64,000 nucleotides of DNA from Herbidospora yilanensis (GTDB lineage Bacteria; Actinomycetota; Actinomycetes; Streptosporangiales; Streptosporangiaceae), in the NCBI RefSeq assembly GCF_001570565.1, contig NZ_BBXE01000013.1, positions 264,984 to 328,983 on the forward strand. The letters run 5' to 3'. Position numbers and translations under genes: made by a program. The notes beneath the pieces were generated by a model. That model ran no database searches. It saw only the letters and a list, made by a program, of their open reading frames with translations, and was not told the origin of the DNA. Positions 19,930-51,634 of this stretch are shown here, piece after piece. Each line of letters starts with the position of its first letter. Within the stretch, counting starts at the first letter, position 1.

Positions 19930-19955
19930 CCCGCATAGTGGGGGTCTGAGGTGAA

Positions 19956-20002: not shown

Positions 20003-20015
20003 CAGGGAGGGACGG

Positions 20016-33005: not shown

Positions 33006-33007
33006 GA

Positions 33008-35734: not shown

Positions 35735-35789
35735 CAGGCCATCATGCCCCGGTGGGGAAGTCTGCTGACAATATGGGGGCAGTACCCCC

Positions 35790-38102
35790 ATGTATGGGGG
35801 GAACCTCCCCCCAATACTGCTGGACGTGAGCGATTCGGCCGACCTTCCGCAGTTCCCCGGTGTCCTGGACACCGTGCGCGCCTGGCTCTCCTCCGCCGAT
35901 CCCCGGCCCCTCGTGCTGACCGGGCCGCCCGGCAGCGGCACCGCGGCGTTGCTGGCCCGGCTCGGCGAGCACCTCGCCGGAGAGCCGTCCGTCGTCGTCC
36001 GCGACGACCTCTGCGACGACCCCGCCCGGTTGCCGGCGCGGCCGGGTCTCCGCGTGATCACCCGGGCCCGCCGCCGGCACGACGGGCTGCTCTCCCTTCC
36101 GGTGCGGCCCCTGCGCGGCCACGGCCCCGACAGCGAGGTGGTCCGGTACTTCCTGCGGTGCCTGCGCCGCCACGACCCGACCGCCGTCGTCGCGGCCGAG
36201 GACCTGTCCCAGGTGAGCGAGGTCTGCGCGGCCTCGTTCGGGCTGTCCGCCGACGTCGACCTGCTGGCCGGGCTGGTCGCCCGCTACGGCCTGGCGGCCG
36301 TGCGCGACGCGGTCGCCGAGGACCACCAGCGCACCCGGCTGGCCGGGCTGCTCGGCGACGCCCACGGCCACCACGACCTGAGCGGCGACGAGATGGTCGT
36401 GCTGGCCTCGATCCTGGCGCTGCCGGGCGGGGCGAGCGAGAACGTGCTGCGCCACTCGTTGCCGCGGTGCGACATCGGCGGGCTGACCGCCTCCCTGGTC
36501 GAGCGCGGCCTGGTGGTGCGCGCCGAGCCCCGGCGCTGGCACCTGCGGGTGAGCGGCTTCCCGGCGGCGAGCTGGTGCGCCGCGCGGCCGGAGGTGTCGC
36601 TCGACGCGATCCGCCAGGCGCAGGCCGACTACCTGTCGGGCCAGGTCGCGCGGCTGGCCGCGGGTGTCTTCACCGACCACCAGCGGGCCGTGTTCGCCGA
36701 GTTCGACCACGAGCGGCGCAACCTCAACGCCGCCGTCGCCGAACTCGTCGGCGGCGGCCGGTACGCCCAGGCCGTCGCCCTCATGCGGGACGCCCTGCCG
36801 TTGCTGGCCCGCACCTCCGGCGTGGCCGGGCTGCTGCCGCACCTGCTGCCGGTCATCCGCAGGTACGCGCCCGCGACCCCGGCCGAACGGCACACGTTGT
36901 CGCGGCTGGCCGTGCGGGTGTTCGCGGCCGGAGGGGAACAGGAGGCCGCCGCCGTCTGCTTCGACGCGCTGCCGGAGACCGACCCGGACGTGCCGCTGCT
37001 GGCGGCCCTCGTGCACGCCGTGCCCGACCCGGAGGAGCTGGCCGCCTGCGTGCGGACCGCCCGCGAACAGGGCGACGCGGTCCGGCTGGGCGAGTCGGTC
37101 GGCGAGTACGTCGCCTGCCTGGCCCGGCTGCGCCGGTTCGACCGCGCCGACGCCGAATGCCGTACCGCCCTGTTCGAGGCGATGTGCGGCGGGGACGACC
37201 ACGCCGCGGCCTCGTTGCTGCTCTGGCGCGCGGCCGCCGCCACCGCCCTGGCCACCGGCGACAGCCGCCTGTACGTCGAACGGGCCCTCGCCAAGCTGCT
37301 GCCCCTCGGCCCGGCGGCGGCCATGTCGGCCATCGCCGCCGTGGTCGACGGACGCCACCAGCGCGACCTCCAGCAGAGCGCCGTCGACCTGGCGATGGTC
37401 GCCGGGTCGCTCGGCCGGGCCTGCGCGGCCGAGACGGAGCGTCCGGTCGAGGTCGGCGGGCTGCTGACCGGGCGCATCGGCGTCCGGCCGCTGCGCCGCT
37501 GGGTGACGGCGGGAGAGGGGGTCGACCTCGCCGACCTGCTGTGCGAGATCCTCCAGCGCAGGTTCGGCGACGACCCGGCCGCCCCCCGGCCGGTGCCGCA
37601 GGGCTCCGTCGACCCGAGGGTGCTGCGGGAACGGTCGCGGCTGACCGCCCGCGAGTCGGAGGTCGCCGGGCTGGTCGCGACCGGCCTGACGAACAAGCAG
37701 ATCGCCCGCCGGTTGCGCATCTCCGAGTGGACGGTGGTCAACCACCTGCGCCAGGTGATGCGCAAGCTCGACTGCGCCTCCCGGGTCCAGGTCGCCCGCT
37801 GGGTGCACGATCTGGAGGCCGGGTCAGCCCGTCTCGAACCGGCCGACGGCGACGGTGTGCAGCAGGGCCGGGTCGACCAGCGAGGCGAAGTCGGCCGTGA
37901 CGAGGTCGGCGTCCAGCGCGGCCAGCAGCCCGAGGTGCCGGTCGACGTACTCCGGGGGGTCGATGCCGCACGAGAGGAGTTCCGCGTACTGCTGGGTCAC
38001 GGCCAGGGTGGACTCGTACAGTTCGGGCGCGGCGGCGAGCATGCGGTCCCTGACCCGCGTGACCAGCCCCCCGTCGACGTCACCCTCGCGGAGCTGCGTT
38101 AA
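35790..38102 (+). CDS. Large LuxR-family regulator (LAL-like, degenerate P-loop) with a ~90 aa tail antisense to the next gene
   Basis: The N-terminus LVLTGPPGSGTAALLARL is Walker-A-like but lacks the Lys. A helical-repeat middle region follows. The C-terminal LuxR HTH reads LTARESEVAGLVATGLTNKQIARRLRISEWTVVNHLRQVMRKLDCASRVQVARWV. The frame stays open to 38102. Confidence 0.75.
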   Translation: MYGGNLPPILLDVSDSADLPQFPGVLDTVRAWLSSADPRPLVLTGPPGSGTAALLARLGEHLAGEPSVVVRDDLCDDPARLPARPGLRVITRARRRHDGLLSLPVRPLRGHGPDSEVVRYFLRCLRRHDPTAVVAAEDLSQVSEVCAASFGLSADVDLLAGLVARYGLAAVRDAVAEDHQRTRLAGLLGDAHGHHDLSGDEMVVLASILALPGGASENVLRHSLPRCDIGGLTASLVERGLVVRAEPRRWHLRVSGFPAASWCAARPEVSLDAIRQAQADYLSGQVARLAAGVFTDHQRAVFAEFDHERRNLNAAVAELVGGGRYAQAVALMRDALPLLARTSGVAGLLPHLLPVIRRYAPATPAERHTLSRLAVRVFAAGGEQEAAAVCFDALPETDPDVPLLAALVHAVPDPEELAACVRTAREQGDAVRLGESVGEYVACLARLRRFDRADAECRTALFEAMCGGDDHAAASLLLWRAAAATALATGDSRLYVERALAKLLPLGPAAAMSAIAAVVDGRHQRDLQQSAVDLAMVAGSLGRACAAETERPVEVGGLLTGRIGVRPLRRWVTAGEGVDLADLLCEILQRRFGDDPAAPRPVPQGSVDPRVLRERSRLTARESEVAGLVATGLTNKQIARRLRISEWTVVNHLRQVMRKLDCASRVQVARWVHDLEAGSARLEPADGDGVQQGRVDQRGEVGRDEVGVQRGQQPEVPVDVLRGVDAAREEFRVLLGHGQGGLVQFGRGGEHAVPDPRDQPPVDVTLAELR

Positions 38103-39089
38103 CACCCGGGTGATCGCCTCGGCGGCGGCGGGGGCGCGGCCGGCGTCCACGAAGCCGCTGACGATGAACACCCCGCCGGAGAAGAACGGCATGAACCGGG
38201 CCTCGATGCCGTAGCTGGCCCCCATCCGGCCGCGCAGTTCGCGGTTGAGCAGGGAGTCGGGGCCGCCGCCGAGCAGTTCGCCCGCGACCCGGGCCGACGG
38301 CCAGCGCGGGTCGAGCCGGTCGACCGCGAAGCCGCCCAGCACGAGCCGGGTCTGGGGGCCGCCCCGGCCCGGCCGGTGCGTGCGGCCGGGCGTGTCCGCC
38401 GGGAGCGGCGGGACGTCGGCGAGGGGCAGGTCGTCCCCGGCGGGCACGCCGGCGAACGCCTTCGCGGCGGCGTCGGCGGCGCCGGTCCCGGCCAGGTCGC
38501 CGGCCACGACCAGGGTCATCCGGGCGGCGCCGGGCACGACGGCGGCGACGTCGTCCAGGGTCAGCGTGCGCCAGACCGCCTCGGTGCCGCCGAGCGGGCG
38601 GCCGTACCGGGAGCCGGGGGCCAGCACCGACTCGTGCACGAGTTTGTTGCCGAGCGCGATCGGGTCGTCGGACTCCATGGCCCGTTCGGCCACGACCTGG
38701 CGGCGCAGCGCCTCGAACGAGCGGGCCGTCGGCGTGAAGGGGTGCACCATCGCGGCCATCGCCTCGAACAACCGGGGCAGTTCGGCGGCCGGGCAGTCGC
38801 CCATGACGATCGGGCCCCGGTGCCCGCACCGCGTGGTGACCATCCCGCCCGCCAGGGCGAGGTCGCCGACGGTCCCGTCGCGGTGGTGCGGCGCGTCGGC
38901 GTTGAGCAGCGCCGCGTACGCCGCCACCACCCCCTCGGTCTCCGGGCGTTCGACCGCCGTGGTCGGCAGCAGGATCGACAGGGCGGCGGTGGCGACGTGC
39001 CGTCCGGGCATGTCGGCGAGCAGCACCCGCAGGCCGTTGTCCAGCGTGAACGTCTCCGGCTGCGGGAAACGCCAGGTCACAGGATCCAT
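37824..39089 (-). CDS. M16-family peptidase-like subunit lacking the HxxEH zinc motif
   Basis: Internal start MDPVTWRFPQPETFTLDNGLRVLLADMPGR in track ORF 37824..39449-. It has the two-lobe M16 fold signature but no HxxEH. It overlaps the upstream M16 gene by 13 nt. Confidence 0.75.
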   Translation of the reverse strand: MDPVTWRFPQPETFTLDNGLRVLLADMPGRHVATAALSILLPTTAVERPETEGVVAAYAALLNADAPHHRDGTVGDLALAGGMVTTRCGHRGPIVMGDCPAAELPRLFEAMAAMVHPFTPTARSFEALRRQVVAERAMESDDPIALGNKLVHESVLAPGSRYGRPLGGTEAVWRTLTLDDVAAVVPGAARMTLVVAGDLAGTGAADAAAKAFAGVPAGDDLPLADVPPLPADTPGRTHRPGRGGPQTRLVLGGFAVDRLDPRWPSARVAGELLGGGPDSLLNRELRGRMGASYGIEARFMPFFSGGVFIVSGFVDAGRAPAAAEAITRVLTQLREGDVDGGLVTRVRDRMLAAAPELYESTLAVTQQYAELLSCGIDPPEYVDRHLGLLAALDADLVTADFASLVDPALLHTVAVGRFETG

Positions 39090-40258
39090 GAGGGTTCTCC
39101 GGCGGCGTGGAAGGCGACGACCGACGGCCGTGCCATCGGCCCGGCGGCCAGCGCGGCCACCTCGGCGTTGGTGACCCGGCGGACGGCGTCGAGCCGCGTG
39201 GTGACCCCGGCGGCGTCGCCCGACCAGGCGTGTTCCCGGCACAACTCCTCGGCGAGTGTGCGGGCGGCCCCGAGGGCCCCGAGTTGTTCCCTGATGCGCA
39301 GGGCCTTGGCGGCGGCCAGCACGTCGGGCGGCAGCCCGTCGCGGGCCACGGCGGCCAGACGGGCGGCGACGTCCCGTTCGAGCGCGGCCAGGTCGGCCGA
39401 GGCCGGGACCGACAGCTTGACCAGGCCGATCGACGGGCCGAGCGCGCACCGGGCGTGCTGGCCGAGCGCGCCGAGCAGGCCGGGCCGCGAGCCGAGCACC
39501 GACCAGGGGGCGCTGGCCAGCGCCGCCATCACCACCTCGGCGGCGGCCGATCCCGGCGGCAGGGCGAAGGTCAGCCGCACCATGGACGTCGGCTGGCCCT
39601 CCTCGACGTCCTCCCGCGCGCCCAGCGGCTCCCCGGTGACCGGCGGCGGGGCCGGCCGGCCCGAGGGAAACCCGGCCAGGTGGTTCCCGGCGATCTCCAC
39701 GGCCGCGTCGGGGTCGGCCGCGCCGACGACCGACACGACCAGCCGGTCGGCGCCGTAGTGGGCCTCCACGAACGTGGCCACGTCGTCGGGCGTCACGGCG
39801 GCGACCTCGGCGGGGTCGCCGACCGGCGGGCGGCCCGCCGGGTGGTCGCGCCCGAATAACAACCGCAGGCCGCGCCGCAGCCCCGACCCGAACCGGCCGG
39901 GTTCGTCGCGTTCGCGGATCTCCTCCAGCACGATCCGGCGGTGTCCCGCCAGCACGTCCCCGGTCACGCCGCGCCGGCCGCGCCGCACCCGGTCGCCGGC
40001 CTCGGCCAGCATCGCCGGGAGGGTGACCGCCGGGCCGGTCGCCACGTAGTTCGTGGACTCGTAGCCGGTGGTGGCCTGCGCCGAGCCGTTCTCGGACATG
40101 ACGTGCTCGACCACGTGAGCCAGGCCCGACCTGCCGATGGGGTCGTGCAGGGAGCCCGCGCCGTGCCAGGCGTTGACCGCGACGAAGCCGAGCCCCGGGT
40201 CGGGCCGCACGACCAGGGTCGCGCCGCCCGGCAGCCGGCGGGTGACCAGCCCGTCCAT
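39077..40258 (-). CDS. M16-family zinc metallopeptidase (pitrilysin/insulinase type)
   Basis: Internal start MDGLVTRRLPGGATLVV in track ORF 39077..40792-, with the inverted zinc motif GLAHVVEHVM (HxxEH). The start shares one base with the ABC gene stop (TGATG). Confidence 0.8.
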   Translation of the reverse strand: MDGLVTRRLPGGATLVVRPDPGLGFVAVNAWHGAGSLHDPIGRSGLAHVVEHVMSENGSAQATTGYESTNYVATGPAVTLPAMLAEAGDRVRRGRRGVTGDVLAGHRRIVLEEIRERDEPGRFGSGLRRGLRLLFGRDHPAGRPPVGDPAEVAAVTPDDVATFVEAHYGADRLVVSVVGAADPDAAVEIAGNHLAGFPSGRPAPPPVTGEPLGAREDVEEGQPTSMVRLTFALPPGSAAAEVVMAALASAPWSVLGSRPGLLGALGQHARCALGPSIGLVKLSVPASADLAALERDVAARLAAVARDGLPPDVLAAAKALRIREQLGALGAARTLAEELCREHAWSGDAAGVTTRLDAVRRVTNAEVAALAAGPMARPSVVAFHAAGEPSWIL

Positions 40259-41994
40259 CACGCGCCCACGGGGGCGGGGGCCGCCTGGGCGTGCACGAAC
40301 GCCTGGTAGGCGGGGCTGGCCGACGACAACGTGCCGTGGTCGCCCACGGCGGTGACGCGGCCGGCGTCGACGACCACGATCGTGCCGGCCGCGGCGACCG
40401 TCGACAGGCGGTGGGTGACCATCACCACGGCCCGGTCGCGGCCCAGGTCGGCGAGCAGGTCGGTGAGCCGCCGTTCGTTGACGCCGTCCATGTGCGCGGT
40501 CGGTTCGTCGAGCAGCAGGATCTCGGCGTCGGTCAGCAGGGCGCGGGCGATGGACAGGCGCTGCTCCTCGCCGCCGGACATCTGGTCGCCCGCGCCGAGC
40601 ACCGCGTCCAGCCCGGCGGGCAGGGCGCGCACGGCCTGCTCCAGGCCGACGTCGCGCAGCGCGGTCCACAACTCGTCGTCGGACGGGGCGTCCGACCGGC
40701 CCAGCGTCAGGTTCTCGCGCACGGTCATGGACAGGATCGCCGACCCCTGCTCGACCAGGGCGACCCGGCGGCGGGCCTCGGCTGTCGGCCACTCGTGGAG
40801 GGGCGCGCCGAGGAGCTCCACCCGCCCGGCGTCGGTCTCGACGAAGCCCTCCACCACGTTGAGCAGAGTCGACTTGCCCGCTCCCGACGGTCCGACGATC
40901 GCCAGCACCCCGGTGCGCGGCACCTCAAGAGACACCCCGTCGAGCACCGGCTTGCCGCCGAGCGACACCACGACGTCCGAGAGCCGCAGCGCCGGCGCGC
41001 CCGGCGTCACCTCGGGCGCGCGGGCCGCCCCGGCCGGTTCGGTCTCCGCGCCGAGCACCTCGTCGACCCGCCGCGCGGCGGCCTTGCCGACCGCGATCCT
41101 GCCCGCGCCCTGCGCCAGCGCCATCAGCGGGTTGACGAGCTGGAACAGGTACATCAGGAAGGCGATGAACGCCGTGGTCTCCAGCGCGCCCGAGGCCAGG
41201 CGCACCCCGCCCACGGCGAGCACGCCGATGATGGCGACCTGCTGGCCCAGGCCCATCAGCGGGCTGATCGCCGCCTGGGCCCGCGCCGAGCGCACCGCCG
41301 ACGCCGCCGCCTCGCCGATCTCGTTCTCCAGCGGGGCGATGGCCCGGTCCTCCGCCCGGTACGCCTTGACCGTCGTCACCATCGTGAACACCGACTGCGC
41401 GGCCTGGGCCAGCCGGCCGAGCGCGGCCTGCTGCGCCTCGGCCGCCCGGCGCATGCCCGCCAGGAAGGCCCTGATGGCGATCGCGGCCACGACGAACGTG
41501 CCGACCGTCACGGCCAGCATCACCCAGTCGAGGATGCCCATCACGATCAGGTACGCCGTCACCATCACCGCCGAGACCGGCATGACCGTGACGCCCGTGT
41601 CGGTGATCGCGCGCATCTGGGCGGCGTCGGGCCCCATCCGGGAGACCACCTCGCCCACGCCGATCCGCCGGATCACCGGCACCCGCAGGCGCACCGCCCG
41701 GCGCACCACGGCCAGGCGCACGTCCTCGATGGCCCGTTCCCCGGCCGCGCTCAGCAGGTAGGACGACCAGCCTCCGGCGAACGCCCCGGCCAGCACGATC
41801 ACGACGAGCTGCGCCACCGGCCAGACGACGTCCCCGCCCGTCCCGCCGATCACGCCCAGGATGCGGGCGATCAGCAGCGGCGTGACGATCCCGGCCGCGG
41901 CCGAGACCAGGGCGAGCACCACCGAGGCGGCCAGCCGGCCCCGCCGCGCCCTAACCGACCGGGACAACAACCCGAGTGTCGGCGACTCCGCCAT
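40258..41994 (-). CDS. ABC exporter, fused permease and ATPase (type I exporter)
   Basis: Six N-terminal TM helices. Walker A is GPSGAGKST, the signature is MSGGEEQRLSIARAL and Walker B is ILLLDEPTAHMD. Confidence 0.9.
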   Translation of the reverse strand: MAESPTLGLLSRSVRARRGRLAASVVLALVSAAAGIVTPLLIARILGVIGGTGGDVVWPVAQLVVIVLAGAFAGGWSSYLLSAAGERAIEDVRLAVVRRAVRLRVPVIRRIGVGEVVSRMGPDAAQMRAITDTGVTVMPVSAVMVTAYLIVMGILDWVMLAVTVGTFVVAAIAIRAFLAGMRRAAEAQQAALGRLAQAAQSVFTMVTTVKAYRAEDRAIAPLENEIGEAAASAVRSARAQAAISPLMGLGQQVAIIGVLAVGGVRLASGALETTAFIAFLMYLFQLVNPLMALAQGAGRIAVGKAAARRVDEVLGAETEPAGAARAPEVTPGAPALRLSDVVVSLGGKPVLDGVSLEVPRTGVLAIVGPSGAGKSTLLNVVEGFVETDAGRVELLGAPLHEWPTAEARRRVALVEQGSAILSMTVRENLTLGRSDAPSDDELWTALRDVGLEQAVRALPAGLDAVLGAGDQMSGGEEQRLSIARALLTDAEILLLDEPTAHMDGVNERRLTDLLADLGRDRAVVMVTHRLSTVAAAGTIVVVDAGRVTAVGDHGTLSSASPAYQAFVHAQAAPAPVGA

Positions 41995-42970
41995 CGGACC
42001 CTCCCCTCGCGCGCACGGCGGCGAAGATCTCGCGCAGGTCGCGCATGCACTCGTCCTGGCCGTACATGTTGTTGACCGAGCTGGGGTTGACGACCACCTC
42101 GTCCACCCCCAGGTCGTGGTACTTGGCGATCTCGTCGGCGATGTGGTCGGGGTCGCCGTAGACGTACACCCCGGCCTGGACGAGTTCCCTGGCGCCCGAC
42201 ACCGGGTCGGAGGCGTCCACGTCGAGGCCCGCCCTGCGCAGCATGTCGGTGTAGTGGGGGGCCGACAGGTGGCTGATGCTGCCGTACTGGGCCAGCAGGT
42301 TGGCCGACCGGCCGGGCCGGGCGACGGCCGCGTGCACGACCGACACGATGCGCGGCGGCGGCTGCACCCCGGCCGCGCCCTGCGCGACGGCCGGCATGAC
42401 GACGTCCTCGATGTACTTGAGCGGCGTCAGCCACGTCATCGCGAGGTCGCCGCAGCGGCCGGTGACCCGGGCCATGGCGGGCCGCAGCACCCCCGCGCCG
42501 ATCTCCACCGGCGGGCAGTCCATCGGCGGCAGCGCGGCGTCGACGGTGAAGTGCTCTCCCTTGTGCCGCACGTGCTCGTTGCGGGCCAGCCGGCGGGCGA
42601 CGTCGATGAACTCGCCGACGATCGCGGCCGGTCTGGCGTACGGCTCGCCGCGCAACTGCGTCACGTACTGCGGGTAGGCGGCGCCGTAGCCGATCGCCAC
42701 CGGTTGTCCCATGAGCCGGGCCAGCGACCGGGCCTGCAACGCCGCGTCGTACGGGTGGCGCAGCACGATCAGCCCGACGGCCATGCCGATCGAGATCCGG
42801 CAGCCCGTCCCGGCCAGGTAGGCGACCGCCGGGTGGGACTCGATCCGCAACGACTGCCCGAGCCACAACCGCGCCGCGCCGATCTCCTCGGTCAGCCGGC
42901 CGTACGGGACGATCGTGTCCGGGTCGGTCGGCTGGTGCGGGAACATGAACGACACCTTGCGCGAGCTCAC
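41951..42970 (-). CDS. LLM-class (luciferase-like) flavin/F420-dependent oxidoreductase, candidate LanJ-type dehydroamino-acid reductase
   Basis: The C-terminal ~339 aa of track ORF 41951..43954-. The GTG start overlaps the upstream stop (GTGA), giving VSSRKVSFMFPHQP... (first beta-strand of the LLM TIM barrel). It continues ...LWLGQSL...IGMAVGLIVLRHPYDAA...GDPDHIADEIAKYHDLGVDEVVV. Confidence 0.75.
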   Translation of the reverse strand: MSSRKVSFMFPHQPTDPDTIVPYGRLTEEIGAARLWLGQSLRIESHPAVAYLAGTGCRISIGMAVGLIVLRHPYDAALQARSLARLMGQPVAIGYGAAYPQYVTQLRGEPYARPAAIVGEFIDVARRLARNEHVRHKGEHFTVDAALPPMDCPPVEIGAGVLRPAMARVTGRCGDLAMTWLTPLKYIEDVVMPAVAQGAAGVQPPPRIVSVVHAAVARPGRSANLLAQYGSISHLSAPHYTDMLRRAGLDVDASDPVSGARELVQAGVYVYGDPDHIADEIAKYHDLGVDEVVVNPSSVNNMYGQDECMRDLREIFAAVRARGGSDGGVADTRVVVPVG

Positions 42971-43938: not shown

Positions 43939-43940
43939 GA

Positions 43941-45047
43941 TCAGTTCTCTCCAAGGCCGATGGTGGGGGCGAACTTCTCCGGCGTCGTGAGCGCGTTGCG
44001 GCCGATCCCGGCCATGCCGCGCTCCACCGCGCTGAGCCGCGCGCCGTGCACGGCGCCCGCGAGCAGCCGGTCGAAGAAGTGCCACCCGATGTAGCCGGTG
44101 GCCCGCACGGCCAGGCCCTCGTCCGGCTCGGCGACCTCCCGGTAGCCCTGCCAGAAGCGGCGGATGTGCTCGCGCACGGCCGACAGGTGCCGGTCGCCCG
44201 CGGCGACGATCGCCTCGTGGGCGGCGCCCGGCGACAGGCCCGTGTCCAGGTCGAGCTCGCGGAACATGCGCGCCACCGCGTGGTGCACGAACTCGCCCGC
44301 GAAGGCCCCGACGTCCCGGGCCGGGTCGTGGTGCCGGAACTCCTCCCAGTCGATGACGTACAGGTCGTCGCCGGAGCACAGGAACTGGTCCAGGCGCAGG
44401 TCGCCGTGGGTGACGGTGGCGGGGGCGGCGGCCGAGACCCGGTGCAGCGCGGCGAGCGCCTCGACCAGCACCTTGTCGTGCTGGAGCAGCGCCCACGCCT
44501 CGACCTCGCCGCCGCTGCAGTTGGCGTAGTCCTCGGGGCTCAGCGCGTAGAAGGCGTTGGCCCGGCGGTCGTCGGCCGACTCGGGCAGGTCCTCGGCGCG
44601 CGGCAGCGAGTGCACCTCGCCCAGCACCCGGCCCATCCGGTGGGCCAGCTCGACGTCGAGCTCCCCGGCCGCCAGCAGGTCGGAGGCGGCGCGGGAGTCC
44701 GGCACGTACTCGAAGACCAGCAGGCATTCGCCGGCGTCGGCGCCGTGGAAGGCCGGCACCCGCAGCTCGGCCGTCGCACGGCCGGCGATCAGCCGCTGGA
44801 AGGCCAGCACCCGGTCCATCCGGGCGGCGGCGTGCGCGCGGTCCCCCCGCAGGCGCTTGACGAACAGGTCGGGTCCCTCGGCGGTCGGCACCAGCCAGTT
44901 GTCGTTGCGGCCGAGGAAGCCGCGCATGCCCTCCACGATGGGCGTGGCCCCGCTGAGCGAGGCGACCGCCTGGACGAACTCCTCCGGGCGCGACACCGGC
45001 CGGGCCGCGACCAGCCGGGTCGTCTGTGTTTCCTCTTTCACGTCCAT
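43941..45047 (-). CDS. APH/choline-kinase-fold phosphotransferase, candidate RiPP Ser/Thr kinase (LxmK/TvaC-like)
   Basis: The catalytic loop is VTHGDLRLDQFL and the metal-binding segment is YVIDWEEF. The nucleotide-lobe segment reads DLFVKRL...LLVFEYVP. The start is taken at MDVKEETQ (M18 of track ORF 43941..45098-) and is uncertain. Confidence 0.75.
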   Translation of the reverse strand: MDVKEETQTTRLVAARPVSRPEEFVQAVASLSGATPIVEGMRGFLGRNDNWLVPTAEGPDLFVKRLRGDRAHAAARMDRVLAFQRLIAGRATAELRVPAFHGADAGECLLVFEYVPDSRAASDLLAAGELDVELAHRMGRVLGEVHSLPRAEDLPESADDRRANAFYALSPEDYANCSGGEVEAWALLQHDKVLVEALAALHRVSAAAPATVTHGDLRLDQFLCSGDDLYVIDWEEFRHHDPARDVGAFAGEFVHHAVARMFRELDLDTGLSPGAAHEAIVAAGDRHLSAVREHIRRFWQGYREVAEPDEGLAVRATGYIGWHFFDRLLAGAVHGARLSAVERGMAGIGRNALTTPEKFAPTIGLGEN

Positions 45048-45246
45048 GCGCCGAAATCTATGGACGCGGAAAGGCCCCGCGACATCCCAGGAAAGCACCG
45101 GCAGCAGGCATATGGCAGATGCCTGACAGATCCTTGCCGGCCGGTGTTCCCGAATGGCAGTCGGCCGGTGACGCGGGCGCGCAAATCCTCGTCATTTCGC
45201 CAGGACCGGCGGCCTAGTTTCCTTTGTTCCGAAGGAAGGAGATCTC

Positions 45247-45387
45247 ATGTCCAGCGAACTCATCGCGGGATACGCGAACTACGCCAGCACCGAATCGGTC
45301 CTGAGCGAGAACACGACCGCCGAGTGGTGGCCGATCACGTCGTACACCGTCACGCTCTCCACGACGACCACCTCGATCTGGATCTGA
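45247..45387 (+). CDS. RiPP precursor peptide 1 (46 aa)
   Basis: Not in the track because it is under 60 aa. SD GGAAGGAGA lies 6 nt upstream. The sequence is MSSELIAGYANYASTESVLSENTTAEWWPITSYTVTLSTTTTSIWI. It shares its leader with four downstream paralogs. Confidence 0.8.
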   Translation: MSSELIAGYANYASTESVLSENTTAEWWPITSYTVTLSTTTTSIWI

Positions 45388-45397
45388 GGGGCGCGCC

Positions 45398-45538
45398 GTG
45401 TCCGAGCTGATCGCGGGTTACGCCAATTACGCCAGCACCGAGGCGGTGCTCCAGGAACGTTCCGAGGCCGGCCGCTGGATCGAGTGGACCCTCTGGTTCA
45501 CCGTCACCATCTCCGTCACCCCCACCTCCTCCCTCTGA
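45398..45538 (+). CDS. RiPP precursor peptide 2 (46 aa, GTG start)
   Basis: (M)SELIAGYANYASTEAVLQERSEAGRWIEWTLWFTVTISVTPTSSL. GAGGGG lies upstream, and the ORF starts 10 nt after the peptide 1 stop. Confidence 0.75.
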   Translation: MSELIAGYANYASTEAVLQERSEAGRWIEWTLWFTVTISVTPTSSL

Positions 45539-45559
45539 ACCTGCTGAGAAAGGAAGACC

Positions 45560-45709
45560 ATGTCCGAGCTGATCGCCGGTTACGCCAACTACGCCTCCAC
45601 CGAGGCCATCCTCCAGGAGCGGCAGCTCGCCGCCCGTGAGCCCGAGACCGGCCTGTTCACGCTCACCATCACGATCTCGCTGACCATCACGGTCACGATC
45701 AGCCTCTGA
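45560..45709 (+). CDS. RiPP precursor peptide 3 (49 aa)
   Basis: MSELIAGYANYASTEAILQERQLAAREPETGLFTLTITISLTITVTISL. The SD is GAAAGGAAG. Confidence 0.8.
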   Translation: MSELIAGYANYASTEAILQERQLAAREPETGLFTLTITISLTITVTISL

Positions 45710-45722
45710 CCAGGAGGTCCCG

Positions 45723-45872
45723 ATGCACGAGCTCGTCGCCGGATACGCGAACTATGCCTCGGCCGAGGCGATCCTGCGGGAACAGGCCGCCGGGCGTGTT
45801 CTCGAAGCGGGTCTCTTCTTCTCGGTGACCTTCAGCTTCACCCACAGCAATTCCATCTCCTTCTCCATCTGA
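45723..45872 (+). CDS. RiPP precursor peptide 4 (49 aa)
   Basis: MHELVAGYANYASAEAILREQAAGRVLEAGLFFSVTFSFTHSNSISFSI. The SD is AGGAGG. Confidence 0.8.
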   Translation: MHELVAGYANYASAEAILREQAAGRVLEAGLFFSVTFSFTHSNSISFSI

Positions 45873-45890
45873 CCGAAAGGAAACGGGCGA

Positions 45891-46046
45891 ATGAACGACC
45901 TCATCGCCGGATACGCCAACTACGCCTCCACCGAGGCCATCCTGCACGAGCGGCAGATCGCGAGCCGCGACGCCGAATCGATCAGCGCGACCGTGACGGT
46001 CACCTGGACCCTCACCGTCTCCTGGTCCTACTCCTGGTCCTACTAG
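45891..46046 (+). CDS. RiPP precursor peptide 5 (51 aa)
   Basis: MNDLIAGYANYASTEAILHERQIASRDAESISATVTVTWTLTVSWSYSWSY. The SD is GAAAGGAAA. Its TAG stop shares the CTAG palindrome with the convergent LuxR gene stop. Confidence 0.8.
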   Translation: MNDLIAGYANYASTEAILHERQIASRDAESISATVTVTWTLTVSWSYSWSY

Positions 46047-48934
46047 GAATCGCGCAGCACCGCGGCGTGGTCCCCCAGCGCCCCCCGGTTGGAAAGCCCG
46101 GTCTTGGCCAGCAGGCTGGCCACGTGCTTCTCCACCGTCCGCGGTGAGATGAAAAGTCGTCGGCCGATCTCGACGTTGCCGAGCCGTTCGGCGAGCAACA
46201 TCAGAACCTGGTGCTCGCGCACGGTCACGCCGAGGTTGCGCAGTTCGCCGGGCACCCCCTCCCGCCCGGGCCGACGGTACGACACCGCCGCCCCCGCCTG
46301 GCGCAGCAACGTGCGGCAGGCCGCCGTCACCGCCGTCACGCCCGCCTCGTGGAAGTGGTCCTCGGCCGCCCGCAACCACACCACCGGCTCGCCCCATCCG
46401 TCGGCCAGCGCGGCCTCCGCGACCAGCCGCGCCCCCAGGTGCGCCGCCTGCGGGAACGGCTCCCCGGCCGCCCGCGCCTCCGCCATCGTCCGCCCGGCCG
46501 CCGCGTGCTCGCCCCGCCCGCCCAGCAACACCGCGCGGGCGAGCAGCAGGAAGTGCCGGTTCCACCGCAGTTCGGCGGCCGGCTGGGCGTGCACGGCCGC
46601 CCAGTCGTCGAGGGTGAGCTCGCCGGCGAGCGCGCCCAGCAGCACGGCCAGGCCGTAGCGGCCCGTCATGTAGTAGAGCGTGGGATGTTCGTCCTCCCAC
46701 GCGCGTGCCCTGGCGAGCAACTCCGCCGCCTGGTCGCGGTCCTCCTCCAGCAGGGCGCAGAACGCCTGGCAGAGGCCGTACACGACCGGGGTGTGCAGGC
46801 TCTGCTCACCGCCCCACCTGCGGAAATCGGCCAGGGCGTGCTCCATGGCCTCGCGCCGCCCCTGGTGGGCGGCCAGTGTCGCCTGCGCCATCAGCAGATA
46901 CTGGGTGTAGGCCGTGTGCCCCAGCCGGATCGTGGTCTCGACGCACGCGGCGGCGGTCTCGGCGGCGCTCTTGTACTCCGCCCGCAGCACCCGCGTCATC
47001 ACCAGGGACGCCTCCGCGCTGTGCACCAGGCTGATCGCGCCCGCCTGGGTGGCCGCCCGCAGCACCTCCTCAAGCGGATCGCTCTCCCCGGTACGCATGT
47101 TGTGGTTGGCCGCCAGCCGGTACATCGCCCGCAACCGCCACAGGCTCAGCCCGTGCACCTCGGCGATGGCCTTCATCCGGGTCAGGCACCGGTCGGGCTC
47201 GCCGAACCCGTGCACCCTGGTCAGCATGGCCAGCCGCTCCCACGCCTGGCAGGCCACCTCGGGCAGCGGCAGCCGCTCGGCCACCTCGGCGGCGCGTCGC
47301 GACAGCGCCTCGGCGGCGGCCATCTCGGCCGGCCCGGCTTCGTTGACGCCGTGGTCGGGGAACAACAACTGCGCCTCGATCACGTCGATCGCGGCGCCGC
47401 GCGCCTCGTCGGGCAGGCTCTCCAGCGACCGCCGCACGGCCGCCACGTGGGCGCGCCCGGCGGGCAACTCGCCGATCTCGGCGGCCACCCACGCCAGCTT
47501 GGTGCGCAGGTCGACCTCCTGCCACAGCCCCATCGACAGGTCGTCGGACGCGCACTCCCTGGCCAGCTCCAGCGCCCGGTCGGCCCGGCCGCCCTCGGTC
47601 AGCGCGTGCAGCAACCGCTGGAGCGTGTGGGCCCGCGCCGGGGCGGGGCCGCCCTCCTGGAGCCGGTCGGCCCGTTCGAGCAGGGTCGCCGCGACGTCGG
47701 CGGCGCCGCCGTTCAGGTAACGTTCGCCCGCCTCGGCCAGCAACGCCCCGGCCGTGTGGACCTCACCGGCCGTCAGCCGCAGGCTCGCGGCGATCTGGAG
47801 CCACTCGTCCGGGAGCCCCGGATACAGGCGTTCGACCGACCGGGCCGCCTGGCGGGCCAGCCGGGCCCGCTCCGCCGGGATCAGCTCCGCCGACAACGCC
47901 TCGGCGGTCAGGGCGTGGCGGAAGGCGTACCATTCCCCGGCCGGTTCGTCGGGCACGACGAGCCGCGCCGTGGTGGCCGCCCGCAGGATCGCCTCGACCC
48001 CCCGGTCGTCGAGGCCGGAGACGTCCTGGATGACCGGCACCGGGAAGCGGTTCCCGAACACCGCCCCGGTCAGCAGCAGCTCGTGCGCCGCCGGCACGAG
48101 CGTCGCCATGCGCGCCGCGATCCCGCGCGCCGCCGAGTTCGGCCCCCGCGCGCCCGGGTCGTCTTTCAGGGCGTCGACGAACTCCTCGACCAAATACGGC
48201 ACGCCGTCCGTCTCGGCCACGAGGCGGTCCATCACTCCGTCCGGCAGCACGTCCGGCAACTCGTCCGGCCGTGCCAGGCAGGCCGCGACGAGCCGGCGGG
48301 TCTCGTCGGGCGACAGCGGCGGCAACTCGACGACCTCCGCCACCTGGCGGCGGGCGCAGTCGTCGGCCACGGTCCGCGCCGGGCCGGCGTGCCCGCGCAG
48401 GTTCACCAGGAGCAACGCCGGCACGTCGGCGAGGTTGTCGGCCAGGTATTCGACCACGCCCAGCGTGCCCGCGTCGGCGTCGTGCAGGTCCTCCAGCACC
48501 AGCACGCCGCCGCGCGACTCCCGTCCGAGAACGGTCAGGAGCCGCAACACGGCCTCGGCGAGGATGACCGCCGACTCCAGCCGCCGCGCGCCCCCCTCCT
48601 CCCGCCACTCGGGCACCAGCGTCGTCAACGCAGGGAGATAGGGCCGCAACAGCGGATCGTCGGGCGGCCTGCGCGACCGGGCGAGCGAGAACAACGCCTC
48701 GCTCAGCGGCTTGAACGGGATGTCCGCGCTGACCGCGCTACCCCGCCCGCGCAGGCTCACCAGCCCCAGGTCACCGGCCCGCCGGAGCACCTCCGACGTC
48801 AACCGGGACTTCCCGATGCCGGGATCGCCGACCAGGAAGACGGTCTTCCCGCGACCGTCCCCGACCTGCTCCAGACACCTGTCGAACAGCGCTTTCTCGG
48901 GTTCCCGCCCGATCAGGACCGGCGACCTGGACAC
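46043..48934 (-). CDS. LAL-type LuxR-family regulator (AAA ATPase + TPR-like repeats + LuxR HTH)
   Basis: GTG start gives VSRSPVLIGREPEKALFDRCLEQVGDGRGKTVFLVGDPGIGKSRL (Walker A), and Walker B is VLVLEDLHDAD. The C-terminal HTH reads LTVREHQVLMLLAERLGNVEIGRRLFISPRTVEKHVASLLAKTGLSNR. Confidence 0.85.
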   Translation of the reverse strand: MSRSPVLIGREPEKALFDRCLEQVGDGRGKTVFLVGDPGIGKSRLTSEVLRRAGDLGLVSLRGRGSAVSADIPFKPLSEALFSLARSRRPPDDPLLRPYLPALTTLVPEWREEGGARRLESAVILAEAVLRLLTVLGRESRGGVLVLEDLHDADAGTLGVVEYLADNLADVPALLLVNLRGHAGPARTVADDCARRQVAEVVELPPLSPDETRRLVAACLARPDELPDVLPDGVMDRLVAETDGVPYLVEEFVDALKDDPGARGPNSAARGIAARMATLVPAAHELLLTGAVFGNRFPVPVIQDVSGLDDRGVEAILRAATTARLVVPDEPAGEWYAFRHALTAEALSAELIPAERARLARQAARSVERLYPGLPDEWLQIAASLRLTAGEVHTAGALLAEAGERYLNGGAADVAATLLERADRLQEGGPAPARAHTLQRLLHALTEGGRADRALELARECASDDLSMGLWQEVDLRTKLAWVAAEIGELPAGRAHVAAVRRSLESLPDEARGAAIDVIEAQLLFPDHGVNEAGPAEMAAAEALSRRAAEVAERLPLPEVACQAWERLAMLTRVHGFGEPDRCLTRMKAIAEVHGLSLWRLRAMYRLAANHNMRTGESDPLEEVLRAATQAGAISLVHSAEASLVMTRVLRAEYKSAAETAAACVETTIRLGHTAYTQYLLMAQATLAAHQGRREAMEHALADFRRWGGEQSLHTPVVYGLCQAFCALLEEDRDQAAELLARARAWEDEHPTLYYMTGRYGLAVLLGALAGELTLDDWAAVHAQPAAELRWNRHFLLLARAVLLGGRGEHAAAGRTMAEARAAGEPFPQAAHLGARLVAEAALADGWGEPVVWLRAAEDHFHEAGVTAVTAACRTLLRQAGAAVSYRRPGREGVPGELRNLGVTVREHQVLMLLAERLGNVEIGRRLFISPRTVEKHVASLLAKTGLSNRGALGDHAAVLRDS

Positions 48935-48935
48935 G

Positions 48936-49136
48936 TTACTTGTGCGACACCGAGACGGGGTTGACGGGGTCGCCCTCAAGTCCGAGCGCGATGGTCGCGC
49001 CCGCGGCGGTGTCGGGCGACTTAAGGATCAGGGTCGCGCCCGCGGTCAGCCCCGCCAGCACGAGCGCCCGGGTGAGCGGCCTGATGTTGGCCAGCCGCGC
49101 GCCGGCCGCGAGCACCGGATTCTGCTCAGTGTTCAT
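48936..49136 (-). CDS. Small hypothetical protein (66 aa) translationally coupled to the LanM-like gene
   Basis: MNTEQNPVLAAGARLANIRPLTRALVLAGLTAGATLILKSPDTAAGATIALGLEGDPVNPVSVSHK. The ATG overlaps the LanM-like stop (ATGA) and GC3 is high. It has one hydrophobic segment and no Cys. Confidence 0.55.
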   Translation of the reverse strand: MNTEQNPVLAAGARLANIRPLTRALVLAGLTAGATLILKSPDTAAGATIALGLEGDPVNPVSVSHK

Positions 49137-51634
49137 CTGTTCTTCGTCGCCTCTCGAAAGGGGTGCAGCAACAGCACCGATGGAATCTGTCCGGGCGCGG
49201 CCAGCCGCAGCAGACCGTGCCCGATCCCGGCCAGCCCGAGGAGCAGGCCGGGTGTGGAGACGTGGCCGGGAGTGGCGCATCGTGCTCCGTGGCGGCGCAG
49301 GGACGCGAGCACCGAAGGGCCCTCACGTTCCTGGAGTTCGGGCACTCCGAGCCTGCCCACACGTCCGTGGCACAGGCTGTCGTCGGGCAGGAGCACGCTG
49401 GGCGGGGCCGTCCGGCGGGTCAGCAGCCCGCCGCACCAGGTGTGGCCCTCGACCGGGCCGATCGGGACGTCGAGCCCGTACCGGCCGAGCGCCCAGGCGA
49501 TGCCGGCCCGTCCGAACGCGAAGCCGTCGGGCAGATCCGGCGGCAGGTCCCGGCCGGTCAGCAGGTCGGCGCAGGCCGCCGCGACCGTCTCCGCCCCGAT
49601 GGCGAGCATCGCCGCCAGGCACCCGGCCAGCCCGTCGTGCACGTCGAGGGCGCTGCGCTCGGAGATCGTCGCCTCGGCCAGCTCGACCGCCCGGCCGGAC
49701 CACGCGAGCACCTCCGCGTCGCCGAGCAGGTGCCCGATCTGGGCCAGGCCGTAGGCCATGCCGCCCAGCCCGCCGAACCCGCCGCACCCCACGATCTCGG
49801 CCAGCAGCGGTTCGGCGGCCAGGGCGTCCAGCAGCGCGGGCGACGGGGAGAGGGCCTGCCGCGCGGTCTCCAGGAAGTCGCCGCGCCCGGTGACCGTGCC
49901 GGCCTGGGCCAGGAACAGCGCCACGCCGAGATAGCCGGAGGCCAGACCGCCGCCCAGGGGCATGACGGCGAGGCCGCCCTCGTCGTCGGCCTCCAGCCCC
50001 AGCCAGTTGACGGCCGCGCCCCGGCGGTGCGCGCTCGCGAGCAGTTCATCGGCGATCTTGACGGCCGCCGCCAGATAATCTCCGGTCTCGGCTTCGGACG
50101 GCTGATCGGGGCGTGGCGGATCGCCATCGACCCCCTTCGGGTCATGGCTTGGGGCCCCCGCCCGCGTTGCCAGTGACGCGCGAATGATCCACTCCTGCTT
50201 GCCCCGGTCGGCAGGCCCCAGCCCCGTCAGCTTCTCGCCCACCGATTCACGGCCCGTGCGGGCCAACTTCCACGGCACCCCGATGCCGTCCCCAGCGTAG
50301 ATCGTAAGGGAATCCGGCGATGTCCAGAAATAGGGGACATCGCATGAATTTATGCCCTCTGCCTCGAACGGCGCCGCCGCCCGCTGGAGGGCATCGTGCC
50401 CCGACAGCTCCATGAGCAGGGAAAGTGCGCGCTTACCTGAGTCGTCAAGGGCGGATTCCCATAACAGCTCGGAATAGATTCGGGTGGGCCGCAGAAGCAG
50501 TCGCACCCGCATGGGCCCGAACCGGGGGAACAACAACCGGTCCAGGTCGTGCCGCCCCTCCGCGATGGCGTCATAGGCCGCGCGAAAGCCACCGACCAGG
50601 TCGTCCACGTACGCGGCGGGGTCGGCAGGCCGCCCGTCGAGCCGGGGACGATTGGCGGCCCCCGCGAACGGACGCGGCCCGCGCACCGGCCGCATCAGAT
50701 CGGTGTCGCGGTCCTCCCACACGATCCCCGAATAGGCGTGCACCCCTGGGTCGCCGCCCAGCGCCGAGACGTCCTGGACCGCCTGGTCGCCGATCAGCAA
50801 CCTGGGCAGAATCGCGGTCCGGTCGACCGAACGCACGAGCGCGTCGTGGGCCGGATCGGCCGCGTCCGCGCTCAGCACAGGGTGGAACAGCGTCTCGGCG
50901 TCGACGACGACGGGCTGGTCGCCGGCCGCGACGACGTTCTCGAAATGGAGGTCGATCGTGTCCAGCGCGTGCGCCAGCGCGAGCAGCGCCCCCATCCGGC
51001 GATGGAACCGCGCCACCTCCGCCGCGGACGCGCAGGGCCGCGCCTCGGCGAACTCGACCCAGCCGTGCTCCTCACGGGCGACGACCCGGAGCGTACGCAG
51101 CCCGAGGCCGGGCACCCGGCCGTTCAGCCAGCCGATCGCGGCGTTCAGGCACAGATGCGCCTCGACCGGTCGCGGCCGGTAGACGACCCGGGCCCCCGAG
51201 GCGAACCGCACCACCGAGACCGACCGGCCACCGGAATGCGGATCACCGGCGGCCGAGAACGCCACCGGCCCTCCCGCTTCTCCCGGCATCAGGCCGCGCA
51301 CGGCCCTCTCGTCCCGCCGGAACCGGTCCAGCAACTCCATCGCGTGGCGTAACGCCAGGTCGGCCAGGTCGGCCACGGCCGGGTCCGGCTCACGCGCGGC
51401 CCGCCGGGCGAAGCCGGCGTACCTCTCCTCCGGCGTCGCCCCCGGCAACTCGCCCCGATCTCCGGCCTCGGCCAGCCGTACGGCCAGCGCCGGCGCGGCC
51501 CGCTCCGACAACCGGCCCACGAGATCCGCCGCGAAGGCCTCGGCGAACGCGGCCGCTCCGGGATACGCGGCCACCAGCCGGTCGGCGGCACGGCGGGCGA
51601 CGGGTTCGACGACGGCGGAGAAAGGGTGCGTCAC
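49133..51634 (-). CDS. Short (833 aa) LanM-like class II lanthipeptide synthetase (DUF4135 dehydratase-like + LanC-like cyclase domain)
   Basis: GTG start. The kinase-like dehydratase core reads VVYRPRPVEAHL...DLHFENVVAAGDQPVVVDAETLF. The C-terminal LanC-like repeats are GLASGYLGVALFL, GGFGGLGGMAYGL, HDGLAGCLAAM and GFAFGRAGIAWAL. Putative Zn ligands are HTWCGG and SLCHGRVG, followed by GLLLGLAGIGHGLL. Confidence 0.8.
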   Translation of the reverse strand: MTHPFSAVVEPVARRAADRLVAAYPGAAAFAEAFAADLVGRLSERAAPALAVRLAEAGDRGELPGATPEERYAGFARRAAREPDPAVADLADLALRHAMELLDRFRRDERAVRGLMPGEAGGPVAFSAAGDPHSGGRSVSVVRFASGARVVYRPRPVEAHLCLNAAIGWLNGRVPGLGLRTLRVVAREEHGWVEFAEARPCASAAEVARFHRRMGALLALAHALDTIDLHFENVVAAGDQPVVVDAETLFHPVLSADAADPAHDALVRSVDRTAILPRLLIGDQAVQDVSALGGDPGVHAYSGIVWEDRDTDLMRPVRGPRPFAGAANRPRLDGRPADPAAYVDDLVGGFRAAYDAIAEGRHDLDRLLFPRFGPMRVRLLLRPTRIYSELLWESALDDSGKRALSLLMELSGHDALQRAAAPFEAEGINSCDVPYFWTSPDSLTIYAGDGIGVPWKLARTGRESVGEKLTGLGPADRGKQEWIIRASLATRAGAPSHDPKGVDGDPPRPDQPSEAETGDYLAAAVKIADELLASAHRRGAAVNWLGLEADDEGGLAVMPLGGGLASGYLGVALFLAQAGTVTGRGDFLETARQALSPSPALLDALAAEPLLAEIVGCGGFGGLGGMAYGLAQIGHLLGDAEVLAWSGRAVELAEATISERSALDVHDGLAGCLAAMLAIGAETVAAACADLLTGRDLPPDLPDGFAFGRAGIAWALGRYGLDVPIGPVEGHTWCGGLLTRRTAPPSVLLPDDSLCHGRVGRLGVPELQEREGPSVLASLRRHGARCATPGHVSTPGLLLGLAGIGHGLLRLAAPGQIPSVLLLHPFREATKNR

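Follow-up and report, generated by a model that had tools for sequence, protein, structure and literature searches.

A gene cluster of Herbidospora yilanensis that probably converts five precursors without cysteine into linear products with many dehydro or D-amino acids

We analyzed a 64,000-nucleotide stretch of the Herbidospora yilanensis genome (contig NZ_BBXE01000013.1, positions 264,984 to 328,983; hereafter the window) and found a gene cluster whose likely products, derived from five precursors without cysteine, are linear peptides with a high content of dehydro or D-amino acids. An initial annotation had described the locus as a compact cluster for peptides synthesized ribosomally and then modified post-translationally (RiPPs) with a split class-V-type kinase and HopA1 lyase, a luciferase-like (LLM) reductase, an ABC exporter, a pair of M16 peptidases and LuxR regulators, and this description stands. 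It had also combined these class V enzymes with a neighboring class-II-type LanM enzyme in one cluster. A single pathway of both acting on the five precursors was not supported: each half occurs without the other. The account that we expect to hold, with some reserve, is of two RiPP modules, found side by side in Herbidospora and Sphaerimonospora but separable elsewhere. Module 1 (35790-46046) would carry out dehydration and LanJC-type reduction, and module 2 (46043-51634) would serve its own small peptide and regulation. The enzymes belong to known families, and a ribosomal route to D,L-alternating peptides is plausible. Two features are unusual: Cys-free, alternating substrates to which a reductase is invariably linked, and the modular cassette of LanM, small peptide and large ATP-binding LuxR-family (LAL) regulator. 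We found no paper describing the Cys-free alternating pattern or the LanM/small-peptide/LAL cassette, subscription literature lying outside the search.

Cysteine-free precursors beside class V enzymes

The gene map of the window (GC content about 72%) was based on a frame plot of GC content at third codon positions (GC3), lists of open reading frames (ORFs) and hidden Markov model (HMM) searches with Pfam and NCBIfam; all genes of the initial annotation were recovered at its coordinates. Five precursor genes lie in a row on the plus strand, each preceded by a Shine-Dalgarno-like sequence, with spacers of 10-21 nt. These are A1 (MSSELIAGYANYASTESVLSENTTAEWWPITSYTVTLSTTTTSIWI; 45247-45387), A2 ((M/V)SELIAGYANYASTEAVLQERSEAGRWIEWTLWFTVTISVTPTSSL; 45398-45538), A3 (MSELIAGYANYASTEAILQERQLAAREPETGLFTLTITISLTITVTISL; 45560-45709), A4 (MHELVAGYANYASAEAILREQAAGRVLEAGLFFSVTFSFTHSNSISFSI; 45723-45872) and A5 (MNDLIAGYANYASTEAILHERQIASRDAESISATVTVTWTLTVSWSYSWSY; 45891-46046). 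A2, like the LanM-like protein and the 66-amino-acid protein described below, is identical to a protein known from Herbidospora yilanensis. The substrates had been called Cys-free, and indeed 0 of the 5 contains Cys. To place them in a family, we gathered relatives by a kinase scan of species-representative genomes, a protein search with A3 and contig look-ups. Related precursors were found in Herbidospora, Sphaerimonospora, Rhizohabitans, Streptosporangium amethystogenes, Embleya, Streptomyces sp. HPF1205 and a few metagenome contigs, and those of the sister strain NEAU-GS84 are present in the RiPPER dataset of Eyles et al. (bioRxiv 10.1101/2020.12.17.423248). The leader xELIAGYANYASTEAILQE is common to all 32 unique precursors (32/32), none of which (0/32) has a Cys.

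The cores of these peptides share a striking spacing of Ser and Thr. We compared period-2 runs of Ser/Thr in the last 22 residues of the 32 unique peptides with those in shuffled sequences. Significant runs, hardly ever matched by shuffles, were present in 23 of the 32, the longest having 11 members. In A3, 8 Ser/Thr follow one another at i,i+2 spacing (shuffle fraction 0.0005), and in A5 11 do so, a run reached by 0 of 2000 shuffles. Between the Ser/Thr positions stand V, I, L, W and F, among which V, I and L are the commonest, and over the cores Thr outnumbers Ser by 182 to 107. Several cores end in aromatic-rich stretches, such as WSYSWSY and WTWTWTWTY, that resemble the (D-Leu-L-Trp) repeats contained in gramicidin A. 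By comparison, the canonical class V loci L006-L008 (compared loci carry L numbers) encode Cys-containing precursors with leaders of a similar motif, for example DLIAGYTAYTSA and ELVAGYDIYTTAEEL. From leaders and cores, we read the precursor family as a Cys-free branch of class V clusters.

Two close relatives of the window differ in their precursors. The locus of H. solisilvae (L001, 8832-9801) has six precursors in a different order, compared with five in the window, the extra one being MHELVAGYANYASTEALLREQLSGLEAGYYPTIFSVTAPNSVTLSWTSTL; since both number and order differ, the array is being reshuffled between close species. Peptides associated with HopA1 in Herbidospora mongoliensis show a T-I-T-I alternation but end in Cys (for example ...PTITITTITTISAISVTYGIGC; RiPPER table, bioRxiv 10.1101/2020.12.17.423248), and these may be relatives of the Cys-free family capped by aminovinylcysteine (AviCys).

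Divergent from the precursors, a minus-strand operon encodes the class-V-type enzymes, the exporter and the peptidases. Its first gene (43941-45047, with an alternative GTG start at 45098) specifies a Ser/Thr kinase with a fold like those of APH and EPK kinases. The APH assignment had no Pfam match at E<0.01, but the protein scored 364 bits against NCBIfam NF038156 (LxmK), above the cut-off of 315, which confirmed it as LxmK-type. In the alignment to chain A of PDB 9DK1 (LxmK; E=1e-54) it keeps the HGDLRLDQF and IDWEEF stretches. The next gene (42967-43938) encodes an LxmY-type HopA1 lyase (PF17914, E=6.6e-41) that aligned to chain B of the same structure (LxmY; E=1e-40) with its SPGFF active-site stretch intact and would perform phosphate elimination; no NCBIfam model matched this protein. 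PDB 9DK1 is the LxmK/LxmY heterodimer, which dehydrates the lexapeptide precursor (PMC12141560). The third gene (41951-42970) encodes the LLM protein, a luciferase-like F420-type oxidoreductase (Bac_luciferase, PF00296, E=1e-32). Its top NCBIfam matches are all F420-dependent LLM families, with TIGR03564 (MSMEG_4879) the best, and its best PDB matches are F420-dependent Mer enzymes. LxmJ and Cao12 have been placed in the MSMEG_4879 family (PMC8068269), and we regard the LLM protein as a candidate LanJC-type dehydroamino acid reductase.

The remaining genes of this operon encode a permease/ATPase fusion and two peptidase subunits. The exporter (40258-41994; ABC_membrane, E=9e-31; ABC_tran, E=5e-31) has no C39 peptidase domain, and its best NCBIfam matches were of the MsbA and bacteriocin-exporter types, all below cut-off. 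M16A (39077-40258), an insulinase-type subunit, has a Peptidase_M16_C domain (E=6e-11), a weak Peptidase_M16 match and an HxxEH motif (HVVEH at amino acid 48). M16B (37824-39089) also has the Peptidase_M16_C domain (E=1.5e-17) and is without HxxEH. The two genes overlap by 13 nt, and an adjacent pair with HxxEH in one member fits the pattern of heterodimeric M16B peptidases. M16A is the probable leader peptidase and M16B presumably non-catalytic; proteases of the insulinase/M16 kind are regularly part of class V clusters (PMC11186320; PMC7794033). The junctions of the operon, from the 2-nt gap after the kinase gene through GTGA, a 44-nt overlap and TGATG to the 13-nt overlap, were as the initial annotation gave them when checked by coordinates and codons. 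In HMM searches its HopA1, Bac_luciferase, ABC, M16, GerE and DUF4135 assignments all held, and its LANC_like match was partial.

The class V clusters for lexapeptide (lxm), cacaoidin (cao), pristinin (spr) and triantimycin (stn) have the same split LxmK kinase and LxmY/HopA1 lyase, an F420-type LLM reductase (LxmJ, Cao12, SprOR and StnJ) of which the LLM protein is the candidate counterpart, the same M16/insulinase protease, ABC exporter(s) and LuxR regulator, and likewise multiple precursors, with a leader motif that resembles the one found here. Unlike them, the window cluster has no Cys in its precursors and no LanD, second kinase-fold LanX cyclase or methyltransferase, and its cores are strictly (S/T)-hydrophobic. 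Scans with Pfam and NCBIfam of the cluster genes and their flanks found neither LanD (the HFCD decarboxylase) nor a LanX partner.

Eight family loci, comprising the window and L001-L004, L009, L011 and L012 from six actinomycete genera, were then compared. Precursors, kinase, HopA1 lyase, LLM protein and large LuxR regulator are present in 8 of 8, and the ABC exporter and M16 pair in 7 of 8. The minimal Streptomyces locus, L009, has only kinase, lyase, LLM, precursors and LuxR. In all eight the LLM gene adjoins the kinase/lyase pair, and its product is 71-98% identical to the window copy (71-80% across genera), and no enzyme is better conserved in the loci outside Herbidospora, L012 excepted. 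Compared with H. solisilvae, its ratio of nonsynonymous to synonymous substitutions (dN/dS) is 0.13, the lowest in the cluster. Similarly, two of the canonical class V loci, L006 and L008, have an LLM gene directly upstream of kinase and lyase, its product 42-44% identical to the window LLM. A reductase so tightly retained beside the dehydratase argues that the LLM protein acts on dehydrated peptides.

A predicted route to linear D,L-alternating peptides

The gene identities, the synteny, the lack of Cys and the alternation are direct observations; from them we infer a route of dehydration and reduction, the extent of the latter, the stereochemistry of the product and its possible biological activity. 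LuxR1, the large LuxR-family regulator encoded at 35790-38102, probably acts at a conserved palindrome and drives the divergent promoter. The class-V-like leader, through its xELIAGYANYASTEAIL stretch, would dock on the LxmK/LxmY-type heterodimer, where the kinase would phosphorylate Ser/Thr at the alternating core positions, with phosphate elimination by the HopA1 lyase giving dehydroalanine (Dha) and dehydrobutyrine (Dhb). The F420-type LLM enzyme would then reduce Dha and Dhb to D-Ala and D-aminobutyric acid (D-Abu) in the manner of LanJC, the M16 heterodimer would cut off the leader and the ABC transporter would export the product. LLM reductases of class V clusters are credited with yielding D-Ala and D-Abu (PMC7794033; PMC8068269; PMC11186320). 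LanJC enzymes favor hydrophobic residues at positions -2 to +2 (PMC13348032), which is what the precursor cores provide.

No thioether can form, because no precursor has a Cys, and the predicted products are therefore linear; with no Cys, LanD or LanX, lanthionine and AviCys are both precluded. We predict peptides of about 16-24 residues, linear, uncharged and strongly hydrophobic, in which D-Abu or D-Ala alternates with L-Val, Ile, Leu, Trp, Phe or Tyr. By analogy, a product of this kind could fold as a beta-helix in membranes, as gramicidin and the polytheonamides do. The core Cys that defines lanthipeptides, as the source of (methyl)lanthionine or of aminovinyl-(methyl)cysteine, is absent from the precursors, and the products of module 1 would by definition not be lanthipeptides. 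Kloosterman et al. had pointed out that kinase/HopA1 clusters need not make them (PMC7794033).

Several observations weigh against this route. The LLM protein scored 100.6 bits against TIGR03564, far below the cut-off of 234, and the precursor leaders reached only 16.5-16.8 bits against NF038146 (LxmA_leader; cut-off 25), with A3 at 16.5 bits. No immunity gene is evident in the cluster. The cluster encodes no terminal capping enzyme, which together with free charged termini speaks against a strictly gramicidin-like channel. For the precursor family, the open full-text literature gave neither a characterised product nor, apart from the RiPPER table, any printed sequences (subscription literature was outside the search). 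Finally, LxmJ was unable to reduce Dhb in an S28T variant (PMC8068269), and the cores are rich in Thr, which makes the extent of reduction uncertain.

This last point bears on an alternative in which module 1 ends at dehydration or at a few reduced sites, giving linear poly-Dhb/Dha peptides like linaridins, with the LLM enzyme otherwise employed or limited to Dha. Besides the LxmJ result and the abundance of Thr, it can draw on Kloosterman et al., who foresaw SprPT/SprH3 clusters whose residues stay dehydrated (PMC7794033). The retention of the LLM gene in all eight loci, minimal L009 included, and its dN/dS, the lowest in the cluster, speak against it, however, and class V products with D-Abu do exist, namely pristinin, cacaoidin and triantimycin (PMC11186320; PMC8068269; PMC7794033). 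We consider this alternative unlikely, although it deserves to be kept in view, and favor dehydration followed by reduction.

Alternating D and L residues in a hydrophobic peptide are known from the non-ribosomal gramicidin A and from the polytheonamides (proteusins); here such a peptide is predicted. Unlike in those systems, the D residues would arise by dehydration and F420H2-dependent reduction and not by the epimerisation domains of nonribosomal peptide synthetases or by radical-SAM epimerases. The class II lanthipeptides lacticin 3147, bicereucin and rodencin obtain D-Ala and D-Abu by reduction of Dha and Dhb with LanJ enzymes (PMC8068269; PMC11519912). They keep their lanthionine rings and use LanM with LanJA or LanJB, in contrast to the class V dehydratase, LanJC-type reductase and ringless products proposed here. 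If the proposed route is correct, a class V dehydratase and a LanJC reductase together form a stand-alone writer of D-amino acids that introduces up to about 11 alternating D residues into a gene-encoded peptide. It would be a simple, leader-guided route of three enzymes to protease-resistant D,L peptides, potential ion-channel formers or surfactants, and would extend the reach of class V machinery beyond lanthipeptides.

The LanM-like gene and its portable operon

Downstream of the precursors and on the minus strand, a second operon (46043-51634) encodes a short LanM-like protein (49133-51634), a 66-amino-acid protein (48936-49136) and a LAL regulator (46043-48934, with the GTG start taken and an alternative TTG at 48979). 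The three genes are tightly packed: the ATG of the 66-aa ORF overlaps the stop codon of the LanM-like gene (ATGA), and the GTG start of the LAL gene lies 1 nt past the stop of the ORF. The LanM-like protein is 833 aa long, compared with about 1000-1100 aa for canonical LanM enzymes. It matched DUF4135 (E=6e-86) and TIGR03897 (459 bits, cut-off 304), and its dehydratase motifs DLHxEN, DxET and RPTxxY align to those of CylM and LicM2. With these enzymes, and with the second LanM of L013 and L014, it shares the conserved DUF4135 dehydratase and the zinc-ligand motifs WCxG (WCGG in the window) and LCHG. The LanC-like domain is shortened. The best stretch of the Pfam LANC_like match spans profile positions 4-120 of 350, and the motif GFSHGxGG is replaced by GFAFGxxG (GFAFGRAG in the window), followed by a deletion of 25-45 aa, in 6 of 6 aligned LanMs of this kind from five genera. 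Full-length second LanMs of L013 and L014 (Streptosporangium and Sphaerisporangium) have GFSHGAGG at the site of the Phe substitution. The His of GxxHGxxG, replaced by Phe, we take from NisC studies to be the catalytic cyclase residue. Apart from this Phe and the deletion, the cassette differs from canonical LanM systems in that its small ORF is mostly without Cys and it always forms an operon with a LAL gene.

The LanM-like gene is a conserved neighbor of the class V genes, and the same block from the LanM-like gene through the 66-aa ORF and LAL gene to LuxR1 is present in Herbidospora and in two Sphaerimonospora genomes. The possibility had been raised that the two halves are independent and merely abut by chance. 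Independent they are, at least elsewhere. However, the block has different outer neighbors in Herbidospora, Sphaerimonospora sp. CA-214678 and S. cavernae, and an identical block between different neighbors indicates that the adjacency here was inherited and is not accidental. The initial annotation treated the combination as undescribed; in cyanobacteria, LanM genes beside HopA1/kinase clusters were reported earlier (bioRxiv 10.1101/2020.12.17.423248).

The two halves part in both directions. The class-V-type core lacks the LanM cassette in L004, L009, L011 and L012 (Rhizohabitans, Streptosporangium amethystogenes, Embleya and Streptomyces sp. HPF1205), and the LanM/small-ORF/LAL trio occurs without class V genes in six loci of Streptosporangium, Sphaerisporangium and Nonomuraea (L013-L018). 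In four of these six (L013, L014, L017 and L018; Streptosporangium/Sphaerisporangium) the trio is found immediately upstream of a complete class II cluster with a second, full-length LanM and a C39-ABC LanT; where the sequence reaches that far (L013, L014 and L018), these clusters have four or five Cys-rich LanAs. In the two Nonomuraea genomes (L015 and L016) the cassette lies beside regulatory genes. The closest homologs of the LanM-like protein (42-50% identity) are all in the same three-gene arrangement, and the cassette genes are orthologous across contexts, with LAL proteins 54-64%, LanM-like proteins 42-48% and small ORFs 55-61% identical to the window copies. From this distribution, we assign the LanM-like gene to a portable three-gene operon and not to a hybrid synthetase.

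These comparisons also bear on whether the LanM-like enzyme and the class V kinase and lyase jointly dehydrate the five precursors, for instance by splitting Ser/Thr or regions between them. In favor of a joint role are the persistence of the pair in Herbidospora and Sphaerimonospora between different flanking genes, the intact dehydratase motifs and the purifying selection on the gene, and loss of the putative catalytic cyclase His would suit Cys-free substrates. Against it, four genera have the same kind of precursor without a LanM, orthologous cassettes adjoin class II clusters equipped with a full LanM of their own, the cassette has a co-translated small ORF, and the leaders of the five precursors resemble the class V (LxmA) type and not the LanM type. 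An action of the LanM-like enzyme on the five precursors, which is compatible with the sequence as such and tells against separate modules, strikes us as quite improbable. In our preferred account the LanM/small-ORF/LAL operon would regulate or signal for the adjoining RiPP cluster and would not co-modify the five precursors, a proposal in which our confidence is moderate to low.

What the LanM-like enzyme might act on is suggested by the small ORF. Its family comprises 16 sequence clusters, all from Streptosporangiaceae, and in every locus examined a member lies between the LanM-like gene and the LAL gene. The layout of most members is SWQxRLGxPAGSIMIRLAGVSPVTRALVLAGLT...SPDTAA...GG-DDTVxP(V/I)(S/T)x(S/T)x, which we liken, as an assumption, to the WKxP...PAGxI leaders and GG cleavage site of class II LanAs. 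The 66-aa ORF has no Cys, and Cys is present in only 5 of the 16 family members; its dN/dS against L001 is 0.17. On the basis of this layout, the 66-aa protein may be a LanA-like substrate of the LanM-like enzyme, and with moderate to low confidence we propose that this small peptide is dehydrated by the enzyme within its C-terminal P-V/I-S/T-x-S/T motif. Three points tell against such a role: the Herbidospora ORF is shorter than those of other genera and without their PAGSI and GG motifs; pairwise BLASTP between small ORFs and neighboring LanAs gave no significant similarity, leaving the shared PAG-x-I anecdotal; and the central hydrophobic stretch could be a membrane or signal segment. A hidden Cys-containing LanA for the LanM-like gene was also sought nearby and rejected, there being no coding room between 46043 and 52126. 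In Nonomuraea (L015 and L016) the small ORFs carry several Cys. There, at 16026-22091 and 16237-22355, respectively, the cassette is followed by a BTAD regulator, an S8 peptidase, a GAF protein, a 61-aa ORF and a guanylate-cyclase/AAA_16/TPR protein.

The LanM-like gene has the highest dN/dS in the cluster, 0.32, yet it is under purifying selection in both domains (dehydratase 0.33, LanC-like 0.24). Its high ratio, the length of the Herbidospora LanM (833 aa, less than that of any other, with additional deletions in the LanC-like domain) and a small ORF that has lost PAGSI and GG and has no Cys might be taken to indicate a decaying remnant of a class II cluster in which only the regulator is still used. 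Decay sits poorly with three intact genes joined by a 4-nt overlap and a 1-nt gap, with cassette ratios of 0.17-0.32, which signify selection, and with a LanC-like domain held more tightly than the dehydratase. Moreover, the short His-to-Phe architecture is common to all cassette copies aligned, from five genera, and is thus an old and stable form. We judge decay very unlikely.

In its boldest form our account would pair a ribosomal gramicidin-like route, with every second residue dehydrated and all of them reduced, with an undescribed peptide-signal module, confined to Streptosporangiaceae, in which a His-less short LanM tailors a small LanA-like peptide that works via the co-transcribed LAL regulator to turn on the adjoining RiPP cluster; for this full combination we hold out little hope, and offer it tentatively. 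If the cassette is regulatory, it represents a new coupling of a modified-peptide signal to RiPP cluster expression. The locus also carries a caution for genome mining, as rules in the style of antiSMASH would label such regions class II/class V hybrids.

Regulators, divergent promoter and flanking genes

Between the kinase gene and A1 lies a divergent promoter region (45048-45246) with a 21-bp palindrome, CAGGCATATG-G-CAGATGCCTG, at 45105-45125, an inverted repeat that is 90% complementary. The heptamer ATGGCAG had been reported twice here, and both copies (45112 and 45154) are present. It is not enriched, with 3 copies in the window compared with about 4.4 expected, but it falls within the palindrome, and this block is kept in four loci (L001-L003 and L012) and to some extent in L004, among them loci that have no LanM cassette. 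The palindrome sits within an outer inverted repeat, CACCGGC...GCCGGTG (region 45096-45146), and repeated GGCAG/GACAG words at 45096-45146 are kept across Herbidospora, Sphaerimonospora and Streptosporangium; judged from these repeats, 45096-45146 looks like an operator array. A sigma-70 promoter scan of the divergent region gave nothing, as expected for a high-GC actinomycete.

LuxR1, on the plus strand, carries a GerE helix-turn-helix at amino acids 617-671 (PF00196, E=2e-18). Homologs with 46-94% identity lie beside the core cluster in L001-L004, L009, L011 and L012, and LuxR1 is thus the regulator kept throughout the precursor family. Its frame runs about 100 aa past the GerE domain, in a convergent overlap of 279 nt with the 3' end of M16B (37824-38102). 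In S. cavernae (L003) this tail is found only as a separate tblastn segment with 50.6% identity, and it may simply have stayed open antisense to a high-GC gene, without being functional sequence. The LAL protein fits the large ATP-binding LuxR family, whose members have an N-terminal AAA-type ATPase, a C-terminal GerE helix-turn-helix and about 900-1000 aa: it has an AAA_16 domain (E=1.5e-21), a GerE domain (E=6e-10) and a length of 963-978 aa, and is 54-66% identical to the cassette LALs of L002, L003 and L013-L016. A further, weak match (E=5e-18, well short of the cut-off) is to TIGR03903, a kinase/cyclase fusion protein of TOMM systems, in the regulatory part of that protein; this is another RiPP-associated regulator family.

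The cluster is flanked by housekeeping genes (AhpC, Hsp20 and NAD kinase), which sets its limits at about 35.8-51.6 kb. An Hsp20 gene (51695-52126) lies between the LanM-like and NAD kinase genes in the window. The 21-kb locus of H. solisilvae (L001) gave no Hsp20 match, and there the LanM-like gene directly adjoins NAD kinase. At the other end, a 314-aa minus-strand ORF (35117-36061) without a Pfam match overlaps the start of LuxR1; it matches L001 as two pieces in different frames, and only its 3' part (about 35117-35790) is likely to be a real gene. Farther out, a minus-strand run at 26278-33517 encodes a 1597-aa DUF3686/DUF7902/AAA protein followed by proteins of 669 aa and 169 aa, the latter two without a Pfam or NCBIfam match; none of the three matches PADLOC. 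Within the cluster there are four TTA (Leu) codons, at codon 134 of M16A, codon 330 of M16B and codons 95 and 391 of the LanM-like gene. TTA codons can make expression bldA-dependent in Streptomyces.

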